Notes under the pieces: generated by a model | The model's input: only the letters and a program-made list of their open reading frames with translations | Told to the model about the DNA's origin: nothing | Database searches by the model: none | Shown: piece after piece, positions 52,653-63,842 of the stretch | How positions within the stretch are numbered: the first letter of the stretch is position 1 | How the letters are laid out: each line of letters opens with the position of its first letter | Program-made: the position numbers and the translations under genes | Origin: Chloroflexota bacterium | GTDB lineage: Bacteria > Chloroflexota > Limnocylindria > Limnocylindrales > CSP1-4 | Direction of reading: 5' to 3' | Assembly (NCBI GenBank): GCA_040905225.1 | Contig: JBBDRY010000110.1 | Coordinates: 26,395 to 90,394, forward strand | Length of the DNA: 64,000 nucleotides

Positions 52653-53495
52653 TCAGGCCGCAGCGTCAAGCCATTCCAGAACGATCGACGCCGATTGCTC
52701 GGGCGCCTGCCAGAAATAGCCATGAGCGCAGCCGGCGATGGCGCGGAACGGTGCATTGGGCAGATGCTTCGCGAGGTACTGAGACTGTTCCCAGTGGGAA
52801 CCCGTCCCACCCTGGTGCGTGTCGCGGTCACCAACGAGGACCAGGCACGGATGCGCGATCTCGGAGAGCCGCGCGGTCGTCTCGTGCTGCTGGCGTGCAA
52901 TCACGTGCTTGAAGTAGTCCTCGATGCTGGGACGCGTGTCGAGGTATGCCCGTATCAGCCACTCGACGCGCTTGGGGCTCGCATCCCGGAACTCGGGCGT
53001 GAAGAACGTGGTCGCGATCTGGTGACGGATGTAGCCCTCGAAGCCGTGCTCCGCGATCATCACCGCTGGCTTCAGTGGAATGCCCCGGGTGACTGGTCGC
53101 GACGCGTCGAATTGACCGGGTCCGCTGGCCGCCATGACCGCCCGACGGACCAGTTCCGGACGATCGAGGAGGAGCCACTGGAGGATGCGGCCACCCATCG
53201 AGTGGCCGATTGCGTCGACCGGCCCCAGGCCGAGCTCATCGAGGAGCCGCGCGGCATCTGCCGCGAAGAGGCGCGTGGAGTAGTCACCCGGCATGCCAGC
53301 GGTCGCTCCCGTCCCGCGATGGTCGAACGTTACGACCGTCCGGTGCGGCTCGAGCTGTGCCATGAGCTCCGGGAGGCGCCACGTGTCGCCGGCGTAACCG
53401 GTGCCGGCGATTAGCAGGAGCGGCGGGCCGGTCCCCGTGACACTGTGCGCGACGAGTACCGTCTCGAGCAGCCCTGCATCCCTCAGGCCAGTCAT
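52653..53495 (-). CDS. alpha/beta hydrolase
   Basis: 280 aa from MTGLRDAGL, with a GHSMGG nucleophile elbow. The upstream part of the ORF in the track is Arg/Pro-rich junk. Confidence 0.7.
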   Translation of the reverse strand: MTGLRDAGLLETVLVAHSVTGTGPPLLLIAGTGYAGDTWRLPELMAQLEPHRTVVTFDHRGTGATAGMPGDYSTRLFAADAARLLDELGLGPVDAIGHSMGGRILQWLLLDRPELVRRAVMAASGPGQFDASRPVTRGIPLKPAVMIAEHGFEGYIRHQIATTFFTPEFRDASPKRVEWLIRAYLDTRPSIEDYFKHVIARQQHETTARLSEIAHPCLVLVGDRDTHQGGTGSHWEQSQYLAKHLPNAPFRAIAGCAHGYFWQAPEQSASIVLEWLDAAA

Positions 53496-53535: not shown

Positions 53536-53766
53536 TCACTCGTAAACGGTGAAATTAGCCTCGTACCGGCAACGGCAGCCGGCCGGCCGGGTGCAGTCGG
53601 GGACGGGCACAGATGGGAGCGTGGACGGGGTGTACATCTGGCCGTCGGAGCGGGCGCACGCTTCGCAACGCGTCGAATCTGCGGCGACCACGGCCACACC
53701 ATCGATATCGCCTTCGAGGTACAGGCGCTGGAAGCGCGCGATGAGATCGTCGTGCGGCGCGTTCAC
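53536..53766 (-). CDS. small cysteine-rich protein, paralog 1 (76 aa, unknown family)
   Basis: IDGVAVVAAD...C.AC...C...GCRCRYE..FTVYE. ~55% identical to 61477..61674. Sits between the GntR gene and the hydrolase in one operon. Confidence 0.5.
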   Translation of the reverse strand: MNAPHDDLIARFQRLYLEGDIDGVAVVAADSTRCEACARSDGQMYTPSTLPSVPVPDCTRPAGCRCRYEANFTVYE

Positions 53767-53779
53767 CGATCCCTCGCGC

Positions 53780-54496
53780 TCAGCTGGCCACGGAGAGCTC
53801 GTGCCCGATCGCCTTCCTCACGTGCAGCTGCGTCATGTACTCGGACGCGGCCCGGAGGTGCCGCGTCGACGCGAACTCGGCCGCGTCGGCATCGTGCTCC
53901 TCCAGCGCCCTCAGGATCTGCTCGTGCTCGTCGAAGACCGTGTTCACGCGCGGACTGCTGCTGAATGCCTCGGTGCTGAAGCGGCGCACGAAATCTGAGA
54001 GATCGCGCGCGAGCCGCGACAGCGTCGCGTTGCCGGCGGCGCGGTAGATGACGTCGTGGAAGGCCATGTTGGCATTGACGACGATCTCCGTGCGGCCCGC
54101 ATTCAGCCCCTCGTGCATCGAATCGAGAATGGCTCGCAGGCGCAGGAGCTCCTCGGGCGCGATCCGCTGCGCGGCGAGCCGCGCAGCCAAACCCTCGAGG
54201 ACCTCGCGCACCAGGTAAACATCCTGGATCTCGTGCGGCTCTGGCTCGTGGACGACAAGGCCGCGCACGGGATCTGCGTGGACCAGCTTGTCGGTCATGA
54301 GCCGCTTGAGCGCCTCGCGCACCGGCGTGCGGCTGACTTCGAACTCCGCGGCGAACTGGAGCTCCACCAGCCGCGTGTGGGGCGGAAGCTCCCCCGAGAT
54401 GATCATCTCTTTCATCCGCCGGTACACGCGCTCGCTGCTCGGAAGCCCGTCATCGCGGACCCCTGCAACAGCGCTCCTGGTGCGCGAACGAGCCAC
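53780..54496 (-). CDS. GntR-family (FadR/FCD subfamily) transcriptional regulator
   Basis: wHTH ...YRRMKEMIISGELPPHTRLVELQFAAEFEVSRTPVREALKRL plus an all-helical FCD C-terminal domain. Start is GTG near 54496 or ATG 54415. Confidence 0.75.
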   Translation of the reverse strand: MARSRTRSAVAGVRDDGLPSSERVYRRMKEMIISGELPPHTRLVELQFAAEFEVSRTPVREALKRLMTDKLVHADPVRGLVVHEPEPHEIQDVYLVREVLEGLAARLAAQRIAPEELLRLRAILDSMHEGLNAGRTEIVVNANMAFHDVIYRAAGNATLSRLARDLSDFVRRFSTEAFSSSPRVNTVFDEHEQILRALEEHDADAAEFASTRHLRAASEYMTQLHVRKAIGHELSVAS

Positions 54497-55789: not shown

Positions 55790-56468
55790 ATGATCTCTGT
55801 CGACGGACGCGAGGCGCTTCGGGCGCTCGCCAACCGGCCCGCGGTCGTGACGATCGATCTGCATCGCGGACACCTCGATCCCGAGGTCGCGACACTCCCG
55901 ATGCCTGCCGATCGGGCCGCGGCGCTTATGGAGCGGGTCGTCCCGCTGCTGGACCGCTACCGCGCGGCCGGGCTGCCGGTGTTCCACCTCGTGACCTGGT
56001 ATCGGGACCGCTCGGAGATCCTGAGCAACCCCATCTGGCGCTATCGCGCGGAGCGCGCGGCCGGGCTCCGCAAGCGGATCGCAGACCACAACATCGACGG
56101 AATGCCAGGCATCGAGCTGATGCCCGGAATCGCCCGGCCGGGGGACCGGATCCTGACGACGAAGAAGCGCTACGACTGCTTCGTTGGGACCGACCTGGAG
56201 TTTCGTCCTTCGCTCGGGCGACCATGACGCGCTCTTCGTGATGGGCGTTAACACCAATTCGTGTGTCCTTGCGACGTCGACTGCGGCATCGTCGCGGGAC
56301 TTCGCGGTCTTCGTGGTCGACGACGGCTGCGACTCGATGCTCGGCCGTGACCTCCACGAGGCGGCCGAATCGGTGATCAACGGATCGTTCGGATGGATCG
56401 TGACCGGCGAGCAGACGCTCGAGCTGCTCGCCGAACGAGCTGGCGCCGTCGGCGCCGCGGGAGGTTGA
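55790..56468 (+). pseudogene. isochorismatase/cysteine-hydrolase-family amidase with a 1-nt frameshift (probable assembly error)
   Basis: ORFs 55790..56227 and 56184..56468 join as ...KKRYDCFVGTDLEFVLRSGDHDALFVMGVNTNSCV... if one T is removed from the TTT at 56201-56203. Confidence 0.7.
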
Positions 56469-56689: not shown

Positions 56690-57808
56690 GTGACCGTCGA
56701 GCTCAACGGGATCCGCCTGCGCAACCGGCTGCTGACCTCGGCCAGCCTGCTCGGCTACGGTGCGGGCAAGGGCCGGCTGATCCTCTACGGGCTGTCGCCG
56801 ATCGCCCAGTGGGTGCCGCTCGAGCGGTTCGGCGCCGTCGTGACGCGGACCATGACCGTCCAGCCCCGCGAAGGCCACTTCACGCTCCGCGAGGACTGGA
56901 AGATCTGGCAGTTCCCCGAGATGCTCGGCATGTATTCGCGCGCTCTGCGCCGCGTAGACGCGGGCTGGTTGAACGCTTTCGGCTGGTCGAACATCGGGAT
57001 CGATCGGTACTTCGAGGAATACGAGCGGAGGACGCGGAAGCAGAACCGCATTCTCTCGCTAGGTGGCTTCTCTGCCGAGGAATTCGGCTCGCTCGTTGAA
57101 ACCGTGAACCAGCGCATGAAGCCGGGCGAGATTGCCGCGGTCGAGTTCAACGTCTCGTGCCACAACGTGAACTTTCCCTTCGAGACGATCCTGGAGGACG
57201 TCCTGGCGACCGCGGTTCCGCTGTCCCGCCACCCGGTCATCCTCAAGCTCTCGCCCGACTACGACTACGTCGAGCACGCCCACATGGCGGCGCGCCACGG
57301 AGTCGCCGCCCTGACCGCCATCAACGCCGTCAAGGCGCTGCGGCTGGATCCCAGGACCGGGGAGCCGCTGCTCAAGAACCGCTACGGCTCGCTGTCCGGC
57401 CGTGCCATCAAGCCGATCGGCCTGCGCATCGTTTCGGAGCTGCGGGAGGCCGGCGTCCGCCTGCCGATCATCGCGTCGGCCGGGATCCGGACGTTCGACG
57501 ACTGCCGCGAGTTCTTTTGGGCAGGTGCAGACGCAGTCTCGCTCGGCTCTGCGGTCTGGCTCAAGCCGATGCCGCTCTACGCGCTTGGCCCGCTCGAGGG
57601 TCTGCGCATCCGCCGGCTGATCGGCAAGGTCGAGCGTTACGACGTGCCCGAGCGCAAGCCTCAGCCGATCGACTTCACCCCGCACCCGCTCGAGGCTGAG
57701 CCGTACGAGGCTGAGCCGTACGACGCCGAGCCGGACGAGGCTGAGCCATACGAGGCCGGCGAGGGCGTGCGCGACGAGGCGGAGCTCGCCGGCACCGGGA
57801 CTCGTTGA
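56690..57808 (+). CDS. dihydroorotate dehydrogenase-family protein (PyrD/PreA-like TIM-barrel flavoenzyme) with an acidic EAEPY-repeat tail
   Basis: EFNVSCHNVNFP (cf. NLSCPN) and IIASAGIRTFDD are DHOD-family blocks. The C-terminus is EAEPYEAEPYDAEPDEAEPYEAGEG. Confidence 0.7.
   Translation: MTVELNGIRLRNRLLTSASLLGYGAGKGRLILYGLSPIAQWVPLERFGAVVTRTMTVQPREGHFTLREDWKIWQFPEMLGMYSRALRRVDAGWLNAFGWSNIGIDRYFEEYERRTRKQNRILSLGGFSAEEFGSLVETVNQRMKPGEIAAVEFNVSCHNVNFPFETILEDVLATAVPLSRHPVILKLSPDYDYVEHAHMAARHGVAALTAINAVKALRLDPRTGEPLLKNRYGSLSGRAIKPIGLRIVSELREAGVRLPIIASAGIRTFDDCREFFWAGADAVSLGSAVWLKPMPLYALGPLEGLRIRRLIGKVERYDVPERKPQPIDFTPHPLEAEPYEAEPYDAEPDEAEPYEAGEGVRDEAELAGTGTR
57682..57756. repeat. 15-bp imperfect tandem repeat x5 (GAGGCTGAGCCGTAC) encoding the EAEPY tail
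   Basis: Read directly. Confidence 0.85.
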
Positions 57809-59550: not shown

Positions 59551-60165
59551 GTGACGGACGGTTCGCCCAGGCGGATCGTGGTCGGGATGTCCGGCTCCAG
59601 CGGCGCGATTTTCGGTATCCGCCTCCTGGAGGTGCTTTCCCGGGTCCCGGAGCTCGAGACCCACCTCGTGATGAGCACCGCGGCCGCACAGACGATCGCC
59701 CTCGAGACCGACTACAAGCCGCGCGACGTCGAGGCGCTGGCGACCAGGAGCTACAAGATCGGCGACATCGCCGCATCGCTGTCGAGCGGCTCGTTCCGGA
59801 CTGATGGCATGATCGTCGTGCCCTGCTCGATGAAGTCCGTAGCGGCCATCGCCTACGGCTACGACGAGAACCTGCTCTCGCGGGCAGCGGACGTGACGCT
59901 CAAGGAGAGGCGCCGGCTGATCGTCTGCCCCAGGGAGACGCCGCTCCACCTGGGCCACCTCCGGGCGCTCACCCAGCTGGCCGAGATCGGCGCGATCGTC
60001 GCGCCGCTGATGCCGGCGTTCTACGGCCGACCAAGCTCGATCGACGATCTCGTGGACCACCAGGTCGGACGCCTGCTCGACCTGATCGGTGTGAACGTCG
60101 AGGGGCTGGCCTTTCGCTGGCAGGGCGCGAAGAGCGCGTCGCCGGAGGCTAAGGCCGATGACTGA
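59551..60165 (+). CDS. ubiX: flavin prenyltransferase UbiX (prFMN synthase)
   Basis: [22 protein letters not shown]...[19 protein letters not shown]...[13 protein letters not shown] aligns across the whole E. coli UbiX length. 204 aa. Confidence 0.9.
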
Positions 60166-61452
60166 CTTCGATCTCGTCGTTCGCAACGGCACCGTCGTCA
60201 CGAGCAACCGGCGACGCGAGGTCGACATCGGTGTGATCGATGGCCGTATCGCATCCATCTCTCGACGCGGCGGACTGAGCGGGACAGGTGACGAGGAGAT
60301 CGACGCGACCGGTCACTATGTCCTTCCCGGCGTCATCGACGGCCACGTCCAGTTCCGCGAGCCGGGCATGGAATACAAGGAAGACTGGATGACCGGCTCC
60401 CGCGCCGCCGTGATGGGCGGCGTCACGACGGTGCTGGACATGCCGAACACCATTCCCCAGACGAGCACGCCCGAGGGCGCGCGGGTGAAGCAGGGGCCGA
60501 GCAGGGCCTGGTCGTCGGCATCAAGGCTTTCCTTGGCATCACCATCGGTGGCATTCCGGCACCGCATGACGGCGCGGTGCTCGACGGCATGCGCGCCATC
60601 CAGAGCGTTGGCCTGCGCCTCGGGTTCCACGCCGAGAACAACGACGTGATGGCGAACGAGATCCGCAAGCTCCAGGAGCAGGGACGCAACGACCCGCTGG
60701 CGCACGTCGAATCGCGGCCCGTGATCGCCGAGGTCGAGTCAATCCAGCGCATGGGCCTTTTCGCCAAGCACACCGGCTGCAGGGTCCACATATTCCATCT
60801 CTCGTCCATGCACGGGCTCGAAATGATCGACGAATGGCGGGACAAGGGCGTCGACTTCACCTGCGAGACGGGCGCCCACTACTGCTTCCTGACGTCCGAC
60901 AACATGAAGGAGCTGGGCCCGATCCTGCGCATGAACCCACCGGTCCGCGAAGCCGGCCACGGCGACGCGCTGGTGGTCGGTCTGGCCGATGGACGGGTCA
61001 CCTCGATCGCTACCGACCACTCCCCGCACACGCGCGAGGAAAAGCTCAATCCCGACATCTGGAAGGCGATCAGCGGGTTTGCCGGCGTCGAGACTTCGGT
61101 GCGCCTGTTCCTGACCTACGGCGTCAACGCGGGCCGCATGACGCTGGAGCAGTTCGTTCGCGCGTCCTCGGAGGGACCCGCCAAGACGTGGTCGATGTGG
61201 CCGCGCAAAGGTGCGTTGGAAATTGGCTCGGACGCAGATTTCACGATCATCGATCTTGAGAAGGAAGGCGTCATCCGCGAGGCCGAGCTGCACGGCAAGA
61301 ACAACATCAACCCGTTCGAGGGCCACGCGACGAAGGGCATGGCAGTGGCCACTGTTGTGCGCGGCAGAGTGCAGATGCGCGACGGCGAGCTCACCGGCGA
61401 ACAGGGTTTGGGCCGGCTGATCTCTCCGCTCGTGCCGGTCGCGGCGGGCTGA
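60158..61452 (+). pseudogene. dihydroorotase-like cyclic amidohydrolase, copy 2, with a 1-nt frameshift in a G-homopolymer (probable assembly error)
   Basis: ORF 60158..~60500 ([23 protein letters not shown]...MPNTIPQT) and ORF 60577..61452 join if GGGG at 60493-60496 is read as GGGGG (…[17 protein letters not shown]…). 8-nt overlap with ubiX. Confidence 0.75.
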
Positions 61453-61476
61453 CCAACGGACGAGCAAATCGATCGT

Positions 61477-61674
61477 TTGCAGACGCTGTTCCTCGACGGC
61501 GTCATAGACGGAGTGGCGCTGGTCGCCGCCGACGCGAACGCATGTTCCGTGTGCGCCGAAGTCACCGACCGGGCGTACCTCCCCACGCAGCTGCCGCGCC
61601 TGCCGATCTATGGCTGCACCTCGGCGCGGGGATGTCGCTGCCGCTATGAGCCGGGCTTCACCGTGGTTGAGTAG
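61477..61674 (+). CDS. small cysteine-rich protein, paralog 2 (65 aa, unknown family)
   Basis: VIDGVALVAADANACSVCAEV...CTSARGCRCRYEPGFTVVE. Lies between the amidohydrolase and the MoxR gene. Confidence 0.5.
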   Translation: MQTLFLDGVIDGVALVAADANACSVCAEVTDRAYLPTQLPRLPIYGCTSARGCRCRYEPGFTVVE

Positions 61675-61683
61675 ATTCGGCTG

Positions 61684-62568
61684 ATGGACAGCATCGACGC
61701 CGTCGAATCGGGCCTGCGCGAGCGTGGCTACGTCGCTGACCGTGCCCTCGCCACCGCAGTCTTCCTCGGGCTGCGCCTCGGCCGTCCGTTGCTGCTGGAG
61801 GGCGAGGCGGGCGTCGGCAAGACAGAGCTCGCCAAGGTCCTCGCTGAGGCGCTCGGCACGCGGCTGATACGGCTCCAGTGCTACGAGGGCCTGGACGTCA
61901 ACAACGCGGTGTACGAATGGAATTATCCGCGCCAGATGCTCGAGATTCGGCTGCTCGAGGCGCGCGGGATGGCCGACCAGGCCGCCAGGCAGATCTTCGG
62001 CCCCGACTTCCTCATCCGGCGGCCGCTTCTCCAGGCGCTGGAGGCGGTCGATGGCAAGCCGCCCGTCCTGCTCATCGACGAGGTCGACAGGGCCGACGAG
62101 CCCTTCGAGGCCTACCTGCTCGAGATCCTGTCCGACTACCAGGTGACGGTGCCCGAGATCGGCACGATCAAGGCCGAAACGCCGCCGCACGTGATCCTCA
62201 CGTCGAACCGGACTCGCGAGGTCCACGACGCGTTGAAGCGCCGCTGCCTGTACCACTGGATCGACTACCCGTCGAGCGAACGAGAAGTCGAGATAGTGCT
62301 GTCGCGCATTCCCGAAGCGCCGCGTGTGCTCGTGGGGCAGGTGGTGGCCTTCGTCCAGGGTCTACGGCAGGGGGACCTCTCGAAGTTGCCCGGCGTGGCG
62401 GAGACGCTCGATTGGGCGGCCGCGCTGATGGCCCTGGGCGCGGGCGAGCTCGACGATCCGGTGGTCGACGCGACCCTGGGCGTGATCCTGAAGTACGAAG
62501 AGGACGTGCACCGCGTCCGCGGAGACGAGGCGGGCCGGCTGGTCGCGGCCGCGCGCGAGGTGGCTTGA
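61684..62568 (+). CDS. MoxR-type AAA+ ATPase (CoxD-like Mo-hydroxylase maturation factor)
   Basis: Walker A GEAGVGKTE, Walker B LLIDEVDRA. 294 aa. Confidence 0.8.
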   Translation: MDSIDAVESGLRERGYVADRALATAVFLGLRLGRPLLLEGEAGVGKTELAKVLAEALGTRLIRLQCYEGLDVNNAVYEWNYPRQMLEIRLLEARGMADQAARQIFGPDFLIRRPLLQALEAVDGKPPVLLIDEVDRADEPFEAYLLEILSDYQVTVPEIGTIKAETPPHVILTSNRTREVHDALKRRCLYHWIDYPSSEREVEIVLSRIPEAPRVLVGQVVAFVQGLRQGDLSKLPGVAETLDWAAALMALGAGELDDPVVDATLGVILKYEEDVHRVRGDEAGRLVAAAREVA

Positions 62569-63842
62569 TCCAGCTCGACCCGGAGCGGCTGCTGGCCGCC
62601 GCGGTCGGGTTCGGACGCGAGCTGCGTGCCGCGGGCGTGGCGGTGGCGATGCCGCAGACGCTCGATTTCGTCCGCGCGCTCGGCGTGATGGACCTCGGTG
62701 AGCGCGCGGACGTGCGTTCAGCGAGCCGGTCGATCCACGTTCGACGCCGCGAGGACGTCGAGGTCCACGACGCGCTGTTCGATTCTTTCTGGTCCGCGCG
62801 TCGGGAATTGATCGTCTCGAAGCCATCGTCGGAGGCGCCCCACCGAGGCGCATCAGGCCAGGGACCGGACGGATCGGTGACGCCTCCACGGAGAGCCCAC
62901 CCAGGTACGGCCCGCGACTCCACATCGGCCGCGCCGGCGTTCGTCGTTTCGCGGCGGAGCTACAGCCGAGAGGAGCTTCTTCGCCAGCGCGACTTCGACC
63001 GAATGACGCCCGACGAGTTACGGGAGGCAGAGCGCCTGTTCGATCGGCTGGCCACGAGCCTTGCAACGCGTCCGGCGCGCCGCTACGAGATACACGCTCA
63101 CGGCACTCGACTCGCGCCGCGTCCGATGCTCCGGCGCAGCGTCGCGACCGGCGGTGAGCTCGTGGACTGGCTCTGGCGCAGACCGCGCGTGGTTCCGCGA
63201 CCGGTGACACTGCTCATCGACGTGAGCGGCTCGATGGAGTCGCACGCCCGCATGATGTTGCGCTTCGCCCATTCGCTGCGGCGCGTGAATCGACGAGCCG
63301 AGGTGTTCGTCTTCGGCACGCGCCTGACCCGCGTCACCCGGGCCTTAGCTGCGCGAAATGCGGACGAGGCGCTCGCGCGCGTTTCGACCGAGGTTGCGGA
63401 CTGGTCGGGCGGCACGCGCATCGGTGACTGCCTGCGCGAATACAACAATCGTTGGGCGCGACGCGTTGGGTCGTCGGACGGCATCGTCGTCGTGATGAGC
63501 GATGGCTGGGACCGCGGCGACCCGGATCTGGTGGGTACGGAAGCGATGCGGCTGCGTCGGAATTGCCGCCGCCTGCTGTGGCTAAACCCGCTCGCCGCCG
63601 CGGCCGGATTCGAGCCACTCGCGGCCGGGATGGCCGCTGCCGCGCGGCACGTAGATCGGCTGTTGCCGGCCGGCTCGCTCGATGACCTCGAGGATCTTGC
63701 TGGGCTACTGACCGCGACTCGCTGGGGCGGTCGCCCGTCGCCGCAGCGGCAAACCTCTCCGGAGTCGACGCCTGCAATCAAGGCTCGGACCGTAGACAGG
63801 GTGGCTGCGGATCGACGACCAGACGCGACGAGCCCACTCTAG
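62565..63842 (+). CDS. VWA-domain protein (CoxE-like)
   Basis: MIDAS motif LLIDVSGSM. TTGA overlap with the MoxR gene. ~425 aa. Confidence 0.7.
   Translation: MIQLDPERLLAAAVGFGRELRAAGVAVAMPQTLDFVRALGVMDLGERADVRSASRSIHVRRREDVEVHDALFDSFWSARRELIVSKPSSEAPHRGASGQGPDGSVTPPRRAHPGTARDSTSAAPAFVVSRRSYSREELLRQRDFDRMTPDELREAERLFDRLATSLATRPARRYEIHAHGTRLAPRPMLRRSVATGGELVDWLWRRPRVVPRPVTLLIDVSGSMESHARMMLRFAHSLRRVNRRAEVFVFGTRLTRVTRALAARNADEALARVSTEVADWSGGTRIGDCLREYNNRWARRVGSSDGIVVVMSDGWDRGDPDLVGTEAMRLRRNCRRLLWLNPLAAAAGFEPLAAGMAAAARHVDRLLPAGSLDDLEDLAGLLTATRWGGRPSPQRQTSPESTPAIKARTVDRVAADRRPDATSPL

Follow-up and report, generated by a model that had tools for sequence, protein, structure and literature searches.

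The Phage_Mu_F domain (MuF; PF04233) is known from Mu gpF/gp30 and from gp7 of Bacillus phage SPP1, and it has a sister domain, Phage_min_cap2 (PF06152). MuF is a portal-associated component of the virion, and its biochemical function is unknown (PMC5576092, PMC5512222). It is among the commonest domains of phage head proteins. MuF proteins are about 300 aa or longer, and their genes follow the portal gene in the head-morphogenesis module. The C-terminal ~55 positions of PF04233 and PF06152 match a cysteine-rich module found in the two small proteins described below.

Functional analogies to these proteins are found among small Zn-binding partners of metabolic enzymes, namely VdcD/BsdD of UbiD-type decarboxylases, SoxD of sarcosine oxidase, and the carrier LysW. 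Both the UbiD-type phenolic acid decarboxylases and heterotetrameric sarcosine oxidase have known subunits of this small, Zn-binding kind. Like these analogues, the two proteins are in the range of 60–80 aa, are cysteine-rich, and are encoded inside a pathway cluster with UbiD/UbiX and a DAO-family oxidase. Similarity to VdcD/BsdD, SoxD, or LysW is undetectable by sequence or by profile in Pfam, NCBIfam, and PDB. The cysteine patterns also differ: CxxC...C-x5-C-x-C in the family described here and two CxxC knuckles in the analogues.

The window analyzed here is a stretch of 64,000 nucleotides from a Chloroflexota bacterium. A sequence-only reading of it had pointed to two small ORFs, here called ORF1 and ORF2, and their coordinates agree exactly with the ORF list. 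It had also placed ORF1 between a GntR gene and an alpha/beta hydrolase gene, and ORF2 between a DHOase-like gene and a CoxD-like MoxR ATPase gene. Domain annotation bears out these flanks, with a GntR/FCD regulator beside ORF1 and with an AAA_5-type MoxR gene and then a VWA_CoxE gene after ORF2. The features are as follows.

52653..53495, minus strand: alpha/beta hydrolase, downstream of ORF1 (Pfam Abhydrolase_1/6; same order in locus L005)
53536..53766, minus strand: ORF1, 76-aa acidic cysteine-rich protein, type A (GTG start; ORF list)
53770..53775, minus strand: GAGGGA ribosome-binding site of ORF1, 3 nt before the GTG (read off the sequence)
53780..54496, minus strand: GntR/FCD regulator, directly upstream of ORF1 (Pfam GntR and FCD on the identical contig L009)
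54605..60165, no single strand given: cluster core between ORF1 and ORF2, with genes for DAO, isochorismatase (split), tautomerase, DHO_dh-like protein, PRTase, EamA, and UbiX (Pfam on L009)
60158..61452, plus strand: DHOase-like amidohydrolase, upstream of ORF2, split in two frames (60158-60649 and 60577-61452)
61477..61674, plus strand: ORF2, 65-aa paralogue, type B (TTG start; ORF list)
61684..62568, plus strand: MoxR/CoxD-like AAA+ ATPase (Pfam AAA_5 and AAA)
62571..63842, plus strand: VWA CoxE-like protein, start codon approximate (Pfam VWA_CoxE, E 9e-53)

ORF1 and ORF2 are identical at 34 of 65 positions (52%) in a gap-free BLASTP alignment, with E 3e-24 for the single comparison; the first estimate of about 55% was slightly too high. 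The five conserved cysteines noticed at first sight, C34, C37, C58, C64, and C66 in ORF1 numbering, are common to both proteins and hold in alignments of 22 and of 93 sequences. Both proteins are acidic. ORF1 contains 11 D/E against 7 R, and ORF2 contains 7 against 5, giving net charges of about -4 and -2. The stop codon of the GntR gene and the GTG of ORF1 are separated by 13 nt, within which the GAGGGA site lies, and these two genes on the same strand probably belong to the same operon. ORF2 ends 9 nt before the MoxR-type gene and is identical to the NCBI MAG protein WD830_09635.

Homologues of ORF1 form 37 clusters (75–83 aa, 58–86% identity), and those of ORF2 form 10 clusters (65–94 aa, 66–100% identity). 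After a further homologue search, the close relatives of the two proteins total about 80, with start, stop, and cysteines conserved. All of them are unnamed or annotated as "hypothetical". The named sources are Chloroflexota or Limnocylindrales MAGs, and nearly all of the relatives belong to Limnocylindria. When 22 close homologues are aligned, 20 columns are invariant, including C34, C58, C64, and C66, and C37 is conserved in at least 90% of them. A homologue search with a broad alignment adds more small "hypothetical" proteins, with neither names nor Pfam domains. A 75-aa unannotated gene in L021 and L022 was compared as a possible extra paralogue and is unrelated.

Based on the Nei-Gojobori method, dN/dS is 0.06–0.14 when ORF1 is compared with its L005 and L002 orthologues, and 0.17–0.19 when ORF2 is compared with L001 and L006, with dS saturated (at least 1) in both cases. 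Locus L034, which is out of register, was left out. In both ORFs GC3 is 0.78–0.85 and GC2 is 0.52–0.55, the coding pattern expected in a GC-rich genome, and the long antisense ORFs across both loci are the usual high-GC artefacts. The sequence-only reading had allowed that the two ORFs might not be translated, or that their similarity might be explained by a known domain. Their coding status is supported by dN/dS and GC3; a known domain does explain the similarity in part, as described below. Judged from these comparisons, ORF1 and ORF2 are genuine conserved genes under purifying selection.

The 5' end of ORF2 is peculiar. ORF2 lacks 10–17 N-terminal residues, part of the N-terminal helix, which are found in all nine nearest homologues. 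It cannot be extended upstream because the amidohydrolase stop (61450-61479 region), 24 nt before the TTG, is in the same frame as ORF2. This 5' end may be remodelled or decaying. L038 was excluded from the comparison of N-termini because both its small ORF and its amidohydrolase gene are frame-shifted, possibly through sequencing errors in the L038 assembly.

Neither ORF1 nor ORF2 has any match in Pfam, NCBIfam, or PADLOC at E<=10, nor in PHROGs, and profiles of the close subfamily and of 93 sequences find nothing meaningful in PDB. The profile of 22 sequences was searched against 1.84 billion representative proteins, and 379 representative clusters (50% identity) at E<=1e-3 carry a common module of ~55 residues. 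Its pattern is a hydrophobic strand, D-x2-3-C-x2-C, x4-G-x-x-[YF], x5-P-x-L-P, x3-C-T, and x3-G-C-R-C-x-Y. This corresponds to a beta-strand with Asp at its end, then a CxxC knuckle that runs into a short helix, a loop of the form Y-x-P-x-x-L-P-x-x-P, a Cys, and finally a strand with G-C-R-C. Among 93 diverse copies, C18, P38, C42, and C48 are invariant, and C21, P35, G47, and C50 are conserved in at least 90%.

The module may stand alone, be repeated in tandem, or form the C-terminal part of a larger protein. A Pfam census covering 113 larger family members finds SAP in 30, GGDEF in 16, SAP_new25 in five, SHOCT in four, Phage_Mu_F in four (best E 3e-5), GAF in three, PAS in two, REC in two, and a protein kinase domain in one; none of these 113 proteins has a DUF model over the module. 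The SAP and MuF-like proteins (~330 aa), the module-GGDEF-module proteins, the PAS/GAF-module proteins, and the tandem proteins share the five cysteines and the P-x-L-P loop with the window proteins. In these uncurated cellular proteins, the module is C-terminal or repeated within a larger signalling or SAP-containing protein, whereas the window proteins add to the module only one N-terminal helix and are linked to a catabolic cluster. The same module is thus seen by itself within a conserved catabolic operon and also in fusions with SAP, GGDEF, PAS/GAF, REC, and kinase domains. With at least 379 clusters at 50% identity undescribed in current domain libraries, it is a clear candidate for a new domain-family definition.

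We took the CxxC...CRC pattern to resemble the head-morphogenesis domain of SPP1 gp7 and Mu F, and this resemblance was tested in five ways. Distant members of the family match phrog_595, 115, 2841, 2494, and 3517, always at the same profile region; the labels of these PHROGs are "head maturation protease", "minor head protein", and "head morphogenesis". The best E-values are 4.3e-6 and, across 185 residues, 1.8e-8. In a tblastn search of 50,697 phage genomes, the C-terminal part of P0065 matches minor head protein genes of Thermus, Anoxybacillus, and Staphylococcus phages, which lie directly after portal genes and show PF04233 and/or PF06152 over the matched region. PF04233 itself is matched directly by the four larger members counted in the census.

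Profile comparison gives the same picture. Against an alignment of 11 MuF sequences from diverse phages (123 columns), the 93-sequence family alignment reaches an hhalign probability of 96.7% with E 3.6e-10 over MuF columns 67–119 of 123, and the close subfamily alone reaches 91.4%. Among sixty column-shuffled controls the highest probability is 5.1% (score 16.7, compared with 50.1 for the family alignment), and a reversed control gives 1.2%. The AlphaFold2 model of ORF1, which is only moderately confident (pLDDT 76), predicts a helix at 3–17, a strand at 23–28, a helix at 35–40, and a strand at 66–71. Compared with the viral models of BFVD by Foldseek, almost all of its top 50 matches are "minor capsid protein", "GpF-like", or "head morphogenesis"; the best has E 4.6e-3 and prob 1.00, with TM 0.54–0.58 over 60–73 columns. 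A Foldseek comparison of the model with PDB gives no meaningful match.

From these comparisons, the module and the C-terminal half of PF04233, the minor head protein domain of phage Mu F and SPP1 gp7, are homologous. MuF and the module have in common a strand, D-x2-3-CxxC, x-l-x-G-x-x-[FY], a Pro loop, CRC, and a final strand. The CxxC and CRC of MuF are conserved in the small family, but the His of the MuF motif H-P-x-C-R-C is absent, and in its stead an extra invariant Cys lies within an insertion of 4–5 residues (C-T-x3-G-C-R-C). The N-terminal helical half of MuF, which has a conserved T-E motif, is missing in the window proteins. The complete MuF domain is absent: the alignments span only MuF columns about 59–119 of 123, and the two proteins are 65–76 aa long. 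In Pfam at E<=10, neither ORF1 nor ORF2 reaches the gathering score of PF04233 (29.6 bits). Stand-alone module proteins as a whole are 65–82 aa, in contrast to the size of MuF proteins given above.

The view of the sequence-only reading that the two proteins belong to no placeable family is correct for curated models, but it does not extend to remote homologues, which are found in the C-terminal half of Phage_Mu_F. The small-protein family is absent from Pfam, NCBIfam, PHROGs, and PADLOC, and lies at the periphery of a known superfamily. A search of PDB sequences with the MuF profile found no solved MuF structure. Because no solved structure turned up by sequence and the biochemical function of MuF is unknown, the homology names a fold and transfers no mechanism. 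What it does show is that cellular proteins contain the cysteine-rich C-terminal half of MuF as a module in its own right.

Homology to a phage domain could also mean that the two ORFs are non-functional relics, either fragments of a MuF gene from a decayed prophage or ORFs that arose by chance at high GC. The disruption of two neighbour genes in this genome (amidohydrolase and isochorismatase) and the N-terminal shortening and TTG start of ORF2 would fit this explanation. However, intact ORFs with the same ends occur at about 20 loci in several Limnocylindria species and are under purifying selection. MuF genes belong to phage head-morphogenesis modules, whereas the window genes are in a chromosomal catabolic cluster, and no phage genes are found near the small ORF in the window or in about 20 related loci. 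Because of this conservation and the purifying selection, relics or chance ORFs are strongly disfavoured, and we consider this explanation scarcely credible.

In Thermus phage Lalka27a (L010 1852-2832), the gene after the family's match, a MuF-type minor head gene, encodes a vWA-domain protein. The parallel to the VWA_CoxE gene two genes downstream of ORF2 is probably a coincidence.

Five conserved cysteines make metal binding by the small proteins plausible. The explanation that we propose is a stand-alone knuckle resembling the C-terminal half of MuF, stabilized by Zn and acting as a protein-binding accessory or regulatory adaptor of one catabolic pathway; we give this explanation as a whole about an even chance of being right. 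One structural Zn ion would be held by four of the five cysteines, making the knuckle compact and leaving a flexible tail of fixed length at the C-terminus, with Glu as its last residue. A literature search for a zinc site in MuF found nothing relevant. The sequence-only reading had suggested a zinc-ribbon or rubredoxin-like fold, and no such fold is matched by sequence or fold search among curated families and solved structures.

Alternatively, the five cysteines might bind Fe or serve as a redox switch. The small protein might bind Fe as in rubredoxin, or Fe-S, or form a Zn-thiolate redox sensor, and might serve the DAO, FMN_dh, and DHO_dh-like flavoenzymes of the cluster as an electron carrier or as a sensor of oxidative stress. 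The conservation of five Cys would suit such a role, as would the position of type-B genes, which directly adjoin or overlap a DAO or FMN_dh gene in L001, L006-8, L021-23, L026, L028, and L033, and the presence of the module beside GGDEF and after PAS/GAF in signalling proteins. Yet rubredoxin, ferredoxin, and other metal-centre families are unmatched by sequence or fold, in phage head proteins the MuF module shows a CCHC-type pattern, as is typical of structural Zn, and the type-A loci L002-L004 have no DAO or FMN_dh gene nearby. A redox role is considered unlikely.

The genomic context was compared among loci gathered by exact-protein look-up and by scanning GTDB with one genome for each species, and the neighbours were annotated by tblastn with reference proteins. 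The species scan yields 15 loci, of which 13 are labelled Limnocylindria, Limnocylindrales, Chloroflexota, or Chloroflexia; the other two carry other labels and are on short contigs. In every locus (about 20 distinct ones) except that of the distant relative L024, the small gene is inside the same gene set. This set contains a 4-OT tautomerase, a DAO-family flavoprotein, a DHO_dh- or FMN_dh-like flavoprotein, a type-I PRTase, a bicupin, UbiD and/or UbiX, an Amdase/maleate-isomerase-like gene, an alpha/beta hydrolase, an isochorismatase, an amidohydrolase, a Mo-hydroxylase with MoxR/VWA, EamA, an NMT1-type ABC transporter, and a GntR/FCD regulator. In the window it lies between about 38.7 kb and the window end (~38700-63842). 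The stand-alone form of the module in Limnocylindria is thus a constant member of one catabolic cluster, probably for a (hetero)aromatic acid.

The closest solved relative of the cluster UbiD is 6h6v (E 2e-81), annotated as a UbiD-family decarboxylase, which we take to be HmfF. The closest solved homologue of the cluster DAO is 7fgp, a glycine/D-amino-acid oxidase, and the DHO_dh-like protein is closest to PyrD-B. The cluster looks like an uncharacterised pathway for the degradation of heteroaromatic (di)carboxylates. A literature search for a published account of this cluster in Limnocylindria found nothing relevant. The small gene flags a conserved accessory component of a heteroaromatic-acid degradation cluster in this abundant uncultured lineage of soil and freshwater.

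Gene order is shuffled among the genomes (L001-L009, L021-L039), and no one gene is always beside the small gene. Its same-strand upstream neighbour is a GntR, DAO, FMN_dh, PRTase, cupin, or amidohydrolase gene. Downstream is a GmrSD_N/DUF262, alpha/beta hydrolase, MoxR, or DAO gene, or a convergent tautomerase or cupin gene. Only one pairing is stable, a GntR gene with the small ORF after it, which is seen for the ORF1 type only, in the window and its identical contig L009 and in L002-L005, with gaps of 13–25 nt. Linkage to GntR, which the sequence-only reading had proposed to check in other genomes, is therefore conserved for the ORF1 type and not for type B. Type-B copies, ORF2 included, have no regulator beside them; the gene before them is that of a DAO, FMN_dh, PRTase, cupin, or amidohydrolase, and stop and start codons sometimes overlap. 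Among the loci seen, only this genome has two copies of the small gene per cluster.

A gene for a GmrSD_N (DUF262, ParB-like) protein lies 3–40 nt after the type-B ORF in five distinct loci (seven locus records, with L021 and L022 counted as one locus and L023 and L030 as another). The GmrSD_N domain usually belongs to DNA-modification-dependent restriction systems, and it is an unexpected member of a catabolic cluster. The genes are as follows.

L001, 8253-9335: GmrSD_N gene
L021, 9248-10336: GmrSD_N gene
L022, 2197-3285: GmrSD_N gene
L023/L030: GmrSD_N gene
L026, 10242-11345: GmrSD_N gene
L028, 6310-7380: GmrSD_N gene

The shuffled neighbourhood bears on the possibility that the small protein is a subunit or a maturation factor of one enzyme. 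It might be a VdcD/BsdD-like subunit of UbiD, a SoxD-like subunit of DAO, or a helper of MoxR/VWA in maturing the Mo-hydroxylase. Most loci contain UbiD or UbiX, the Mo-hydroxylase, and DAO, and ORF2 precedes the MoxR-VWA pair by 9 nt in the window, with the same order in L038. The neighbour is not fixed, however. The small gene adjoins DAO in about 6 of ~20 loci, and, unlike the genes of VdcD/BsdD, it is adjacent to UbiD in none of the loci examined. A MoxR gene directly after it is seen only in the window and L038 among about 20 distinct loci; in L005, L006, and L033 the MoxR-VWA pair is present apart from the small ORF, and in most loci neither gene is adjacent. The profiles of the family match no PDB chain, though entries of UbiD-family phenolic acid decarboxylases (7ae4) are present there, and the small-subunit family models of Pfam and NCBIfam are unmatched. 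A role as such a subunit or factor is improbable. With the link to coxD/coxE so poorly conserved, the possibility raised in the sequence-only reading of a Mo-cofactor handling protein is unsupported.

The adaptor explanation, to which we return here, draws on other evidence. The signalling and SAP fusions and the conserved, probable co-transcription with GntR/FCD point to a protein-binding accessory or regulatory adaptor, and the acidic charge argues against DNA binding. The small proteins are probably neither enzymes nor DNA binders. They would bind other proteins as accessory or regulatory adaptors of the pathway, and the ORF1 type would be co-transcribed with the GntR/FCD repressor and would probably modulate it. 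Based on gene order and domain fusions, a role as regulator or regulatory partner is our best guess. This is tempered by the type-B contexts and by the overlaps of stop and start codons, which fit a role as an enzyme subunit equally well.

The C-terminal tail is of nearly constant form. Exactly 10 residues follow the CRC in 83 of 111 small members; 78 of these 83 end in Glu, and 70 end in T-V-Y-E. The tail corresponds to 53536-53568 in ORF1 and to 61642-61674 in ORF2. A second stand-alone subfamily ends 11 residues after the CRC, in [IV]-[YFG]-P.

Such a tail might recall LysW. It can be speculated that the small protein is a new carrier or adaptor of the pathway, built on a MuF-derived fold, with a C-terminal-Glu tail that is docked or covalently loaded by successive enzymes in the manner of LysW. 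We regard this as very unlikely. If the carrier or adaptor reading were true, it would reveal the role of the conserved C-terminal half of MuF in phage heads. A carrier that is LysW-like in the strict sense, an acidic Zn-knuckle that shuttles an intermediate covalently on its C-terminal Glu or docks via that residue, seems more doubtful still. The window-family proteins are, like LysW, acidic with a C-terminal Glu, which ends the 10-residue tail in the 78 members counted above, and the association is with the whole cluster and not with one gene. Unlike the case of LysW, the cluster has no ATP-grasp ligase, and an ATP-grasp/RimK-type ligase is seen in none of the loci inspected. Similarity in Pfam and NCBIfam is nil, LysW-type models included if present, and the module is internal in many multidomain proteins.

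With 65–80 residues, the stand-alone protein is a tractable handle for testing the metal binding, structure, and partners of the module, and the function of MuF. The surprise in these observations is moderate, not high, and a new mechanism is not demonstrated.

Several neighbouring genes in the window show irregularities. Contig L009 comes from a Logan assembly that was produced independently, and over 10,453 nt it matches the window with 100% identity. The window amidohydrolase seems ~30 residues short compared with its homologue in L038, and the break is identical in L009. Unless the two assemblies share inherited read errors, this gene is probably a pseudogene. The isochorismatase-family gene is split into 55790-56227 and 56184-56468 on the plus strand, overlapping ORFs of 145 and 94 aa, and this is also identical in L009. 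The C-terminus of the DHO_dh-like protein (~57690-57790, plus strand) contains an acidic imperfect repeat of AEPYE/AEPYD/AEPDE (..LEAEPYEAEPYDAEPDEAEPYEAGEG..).
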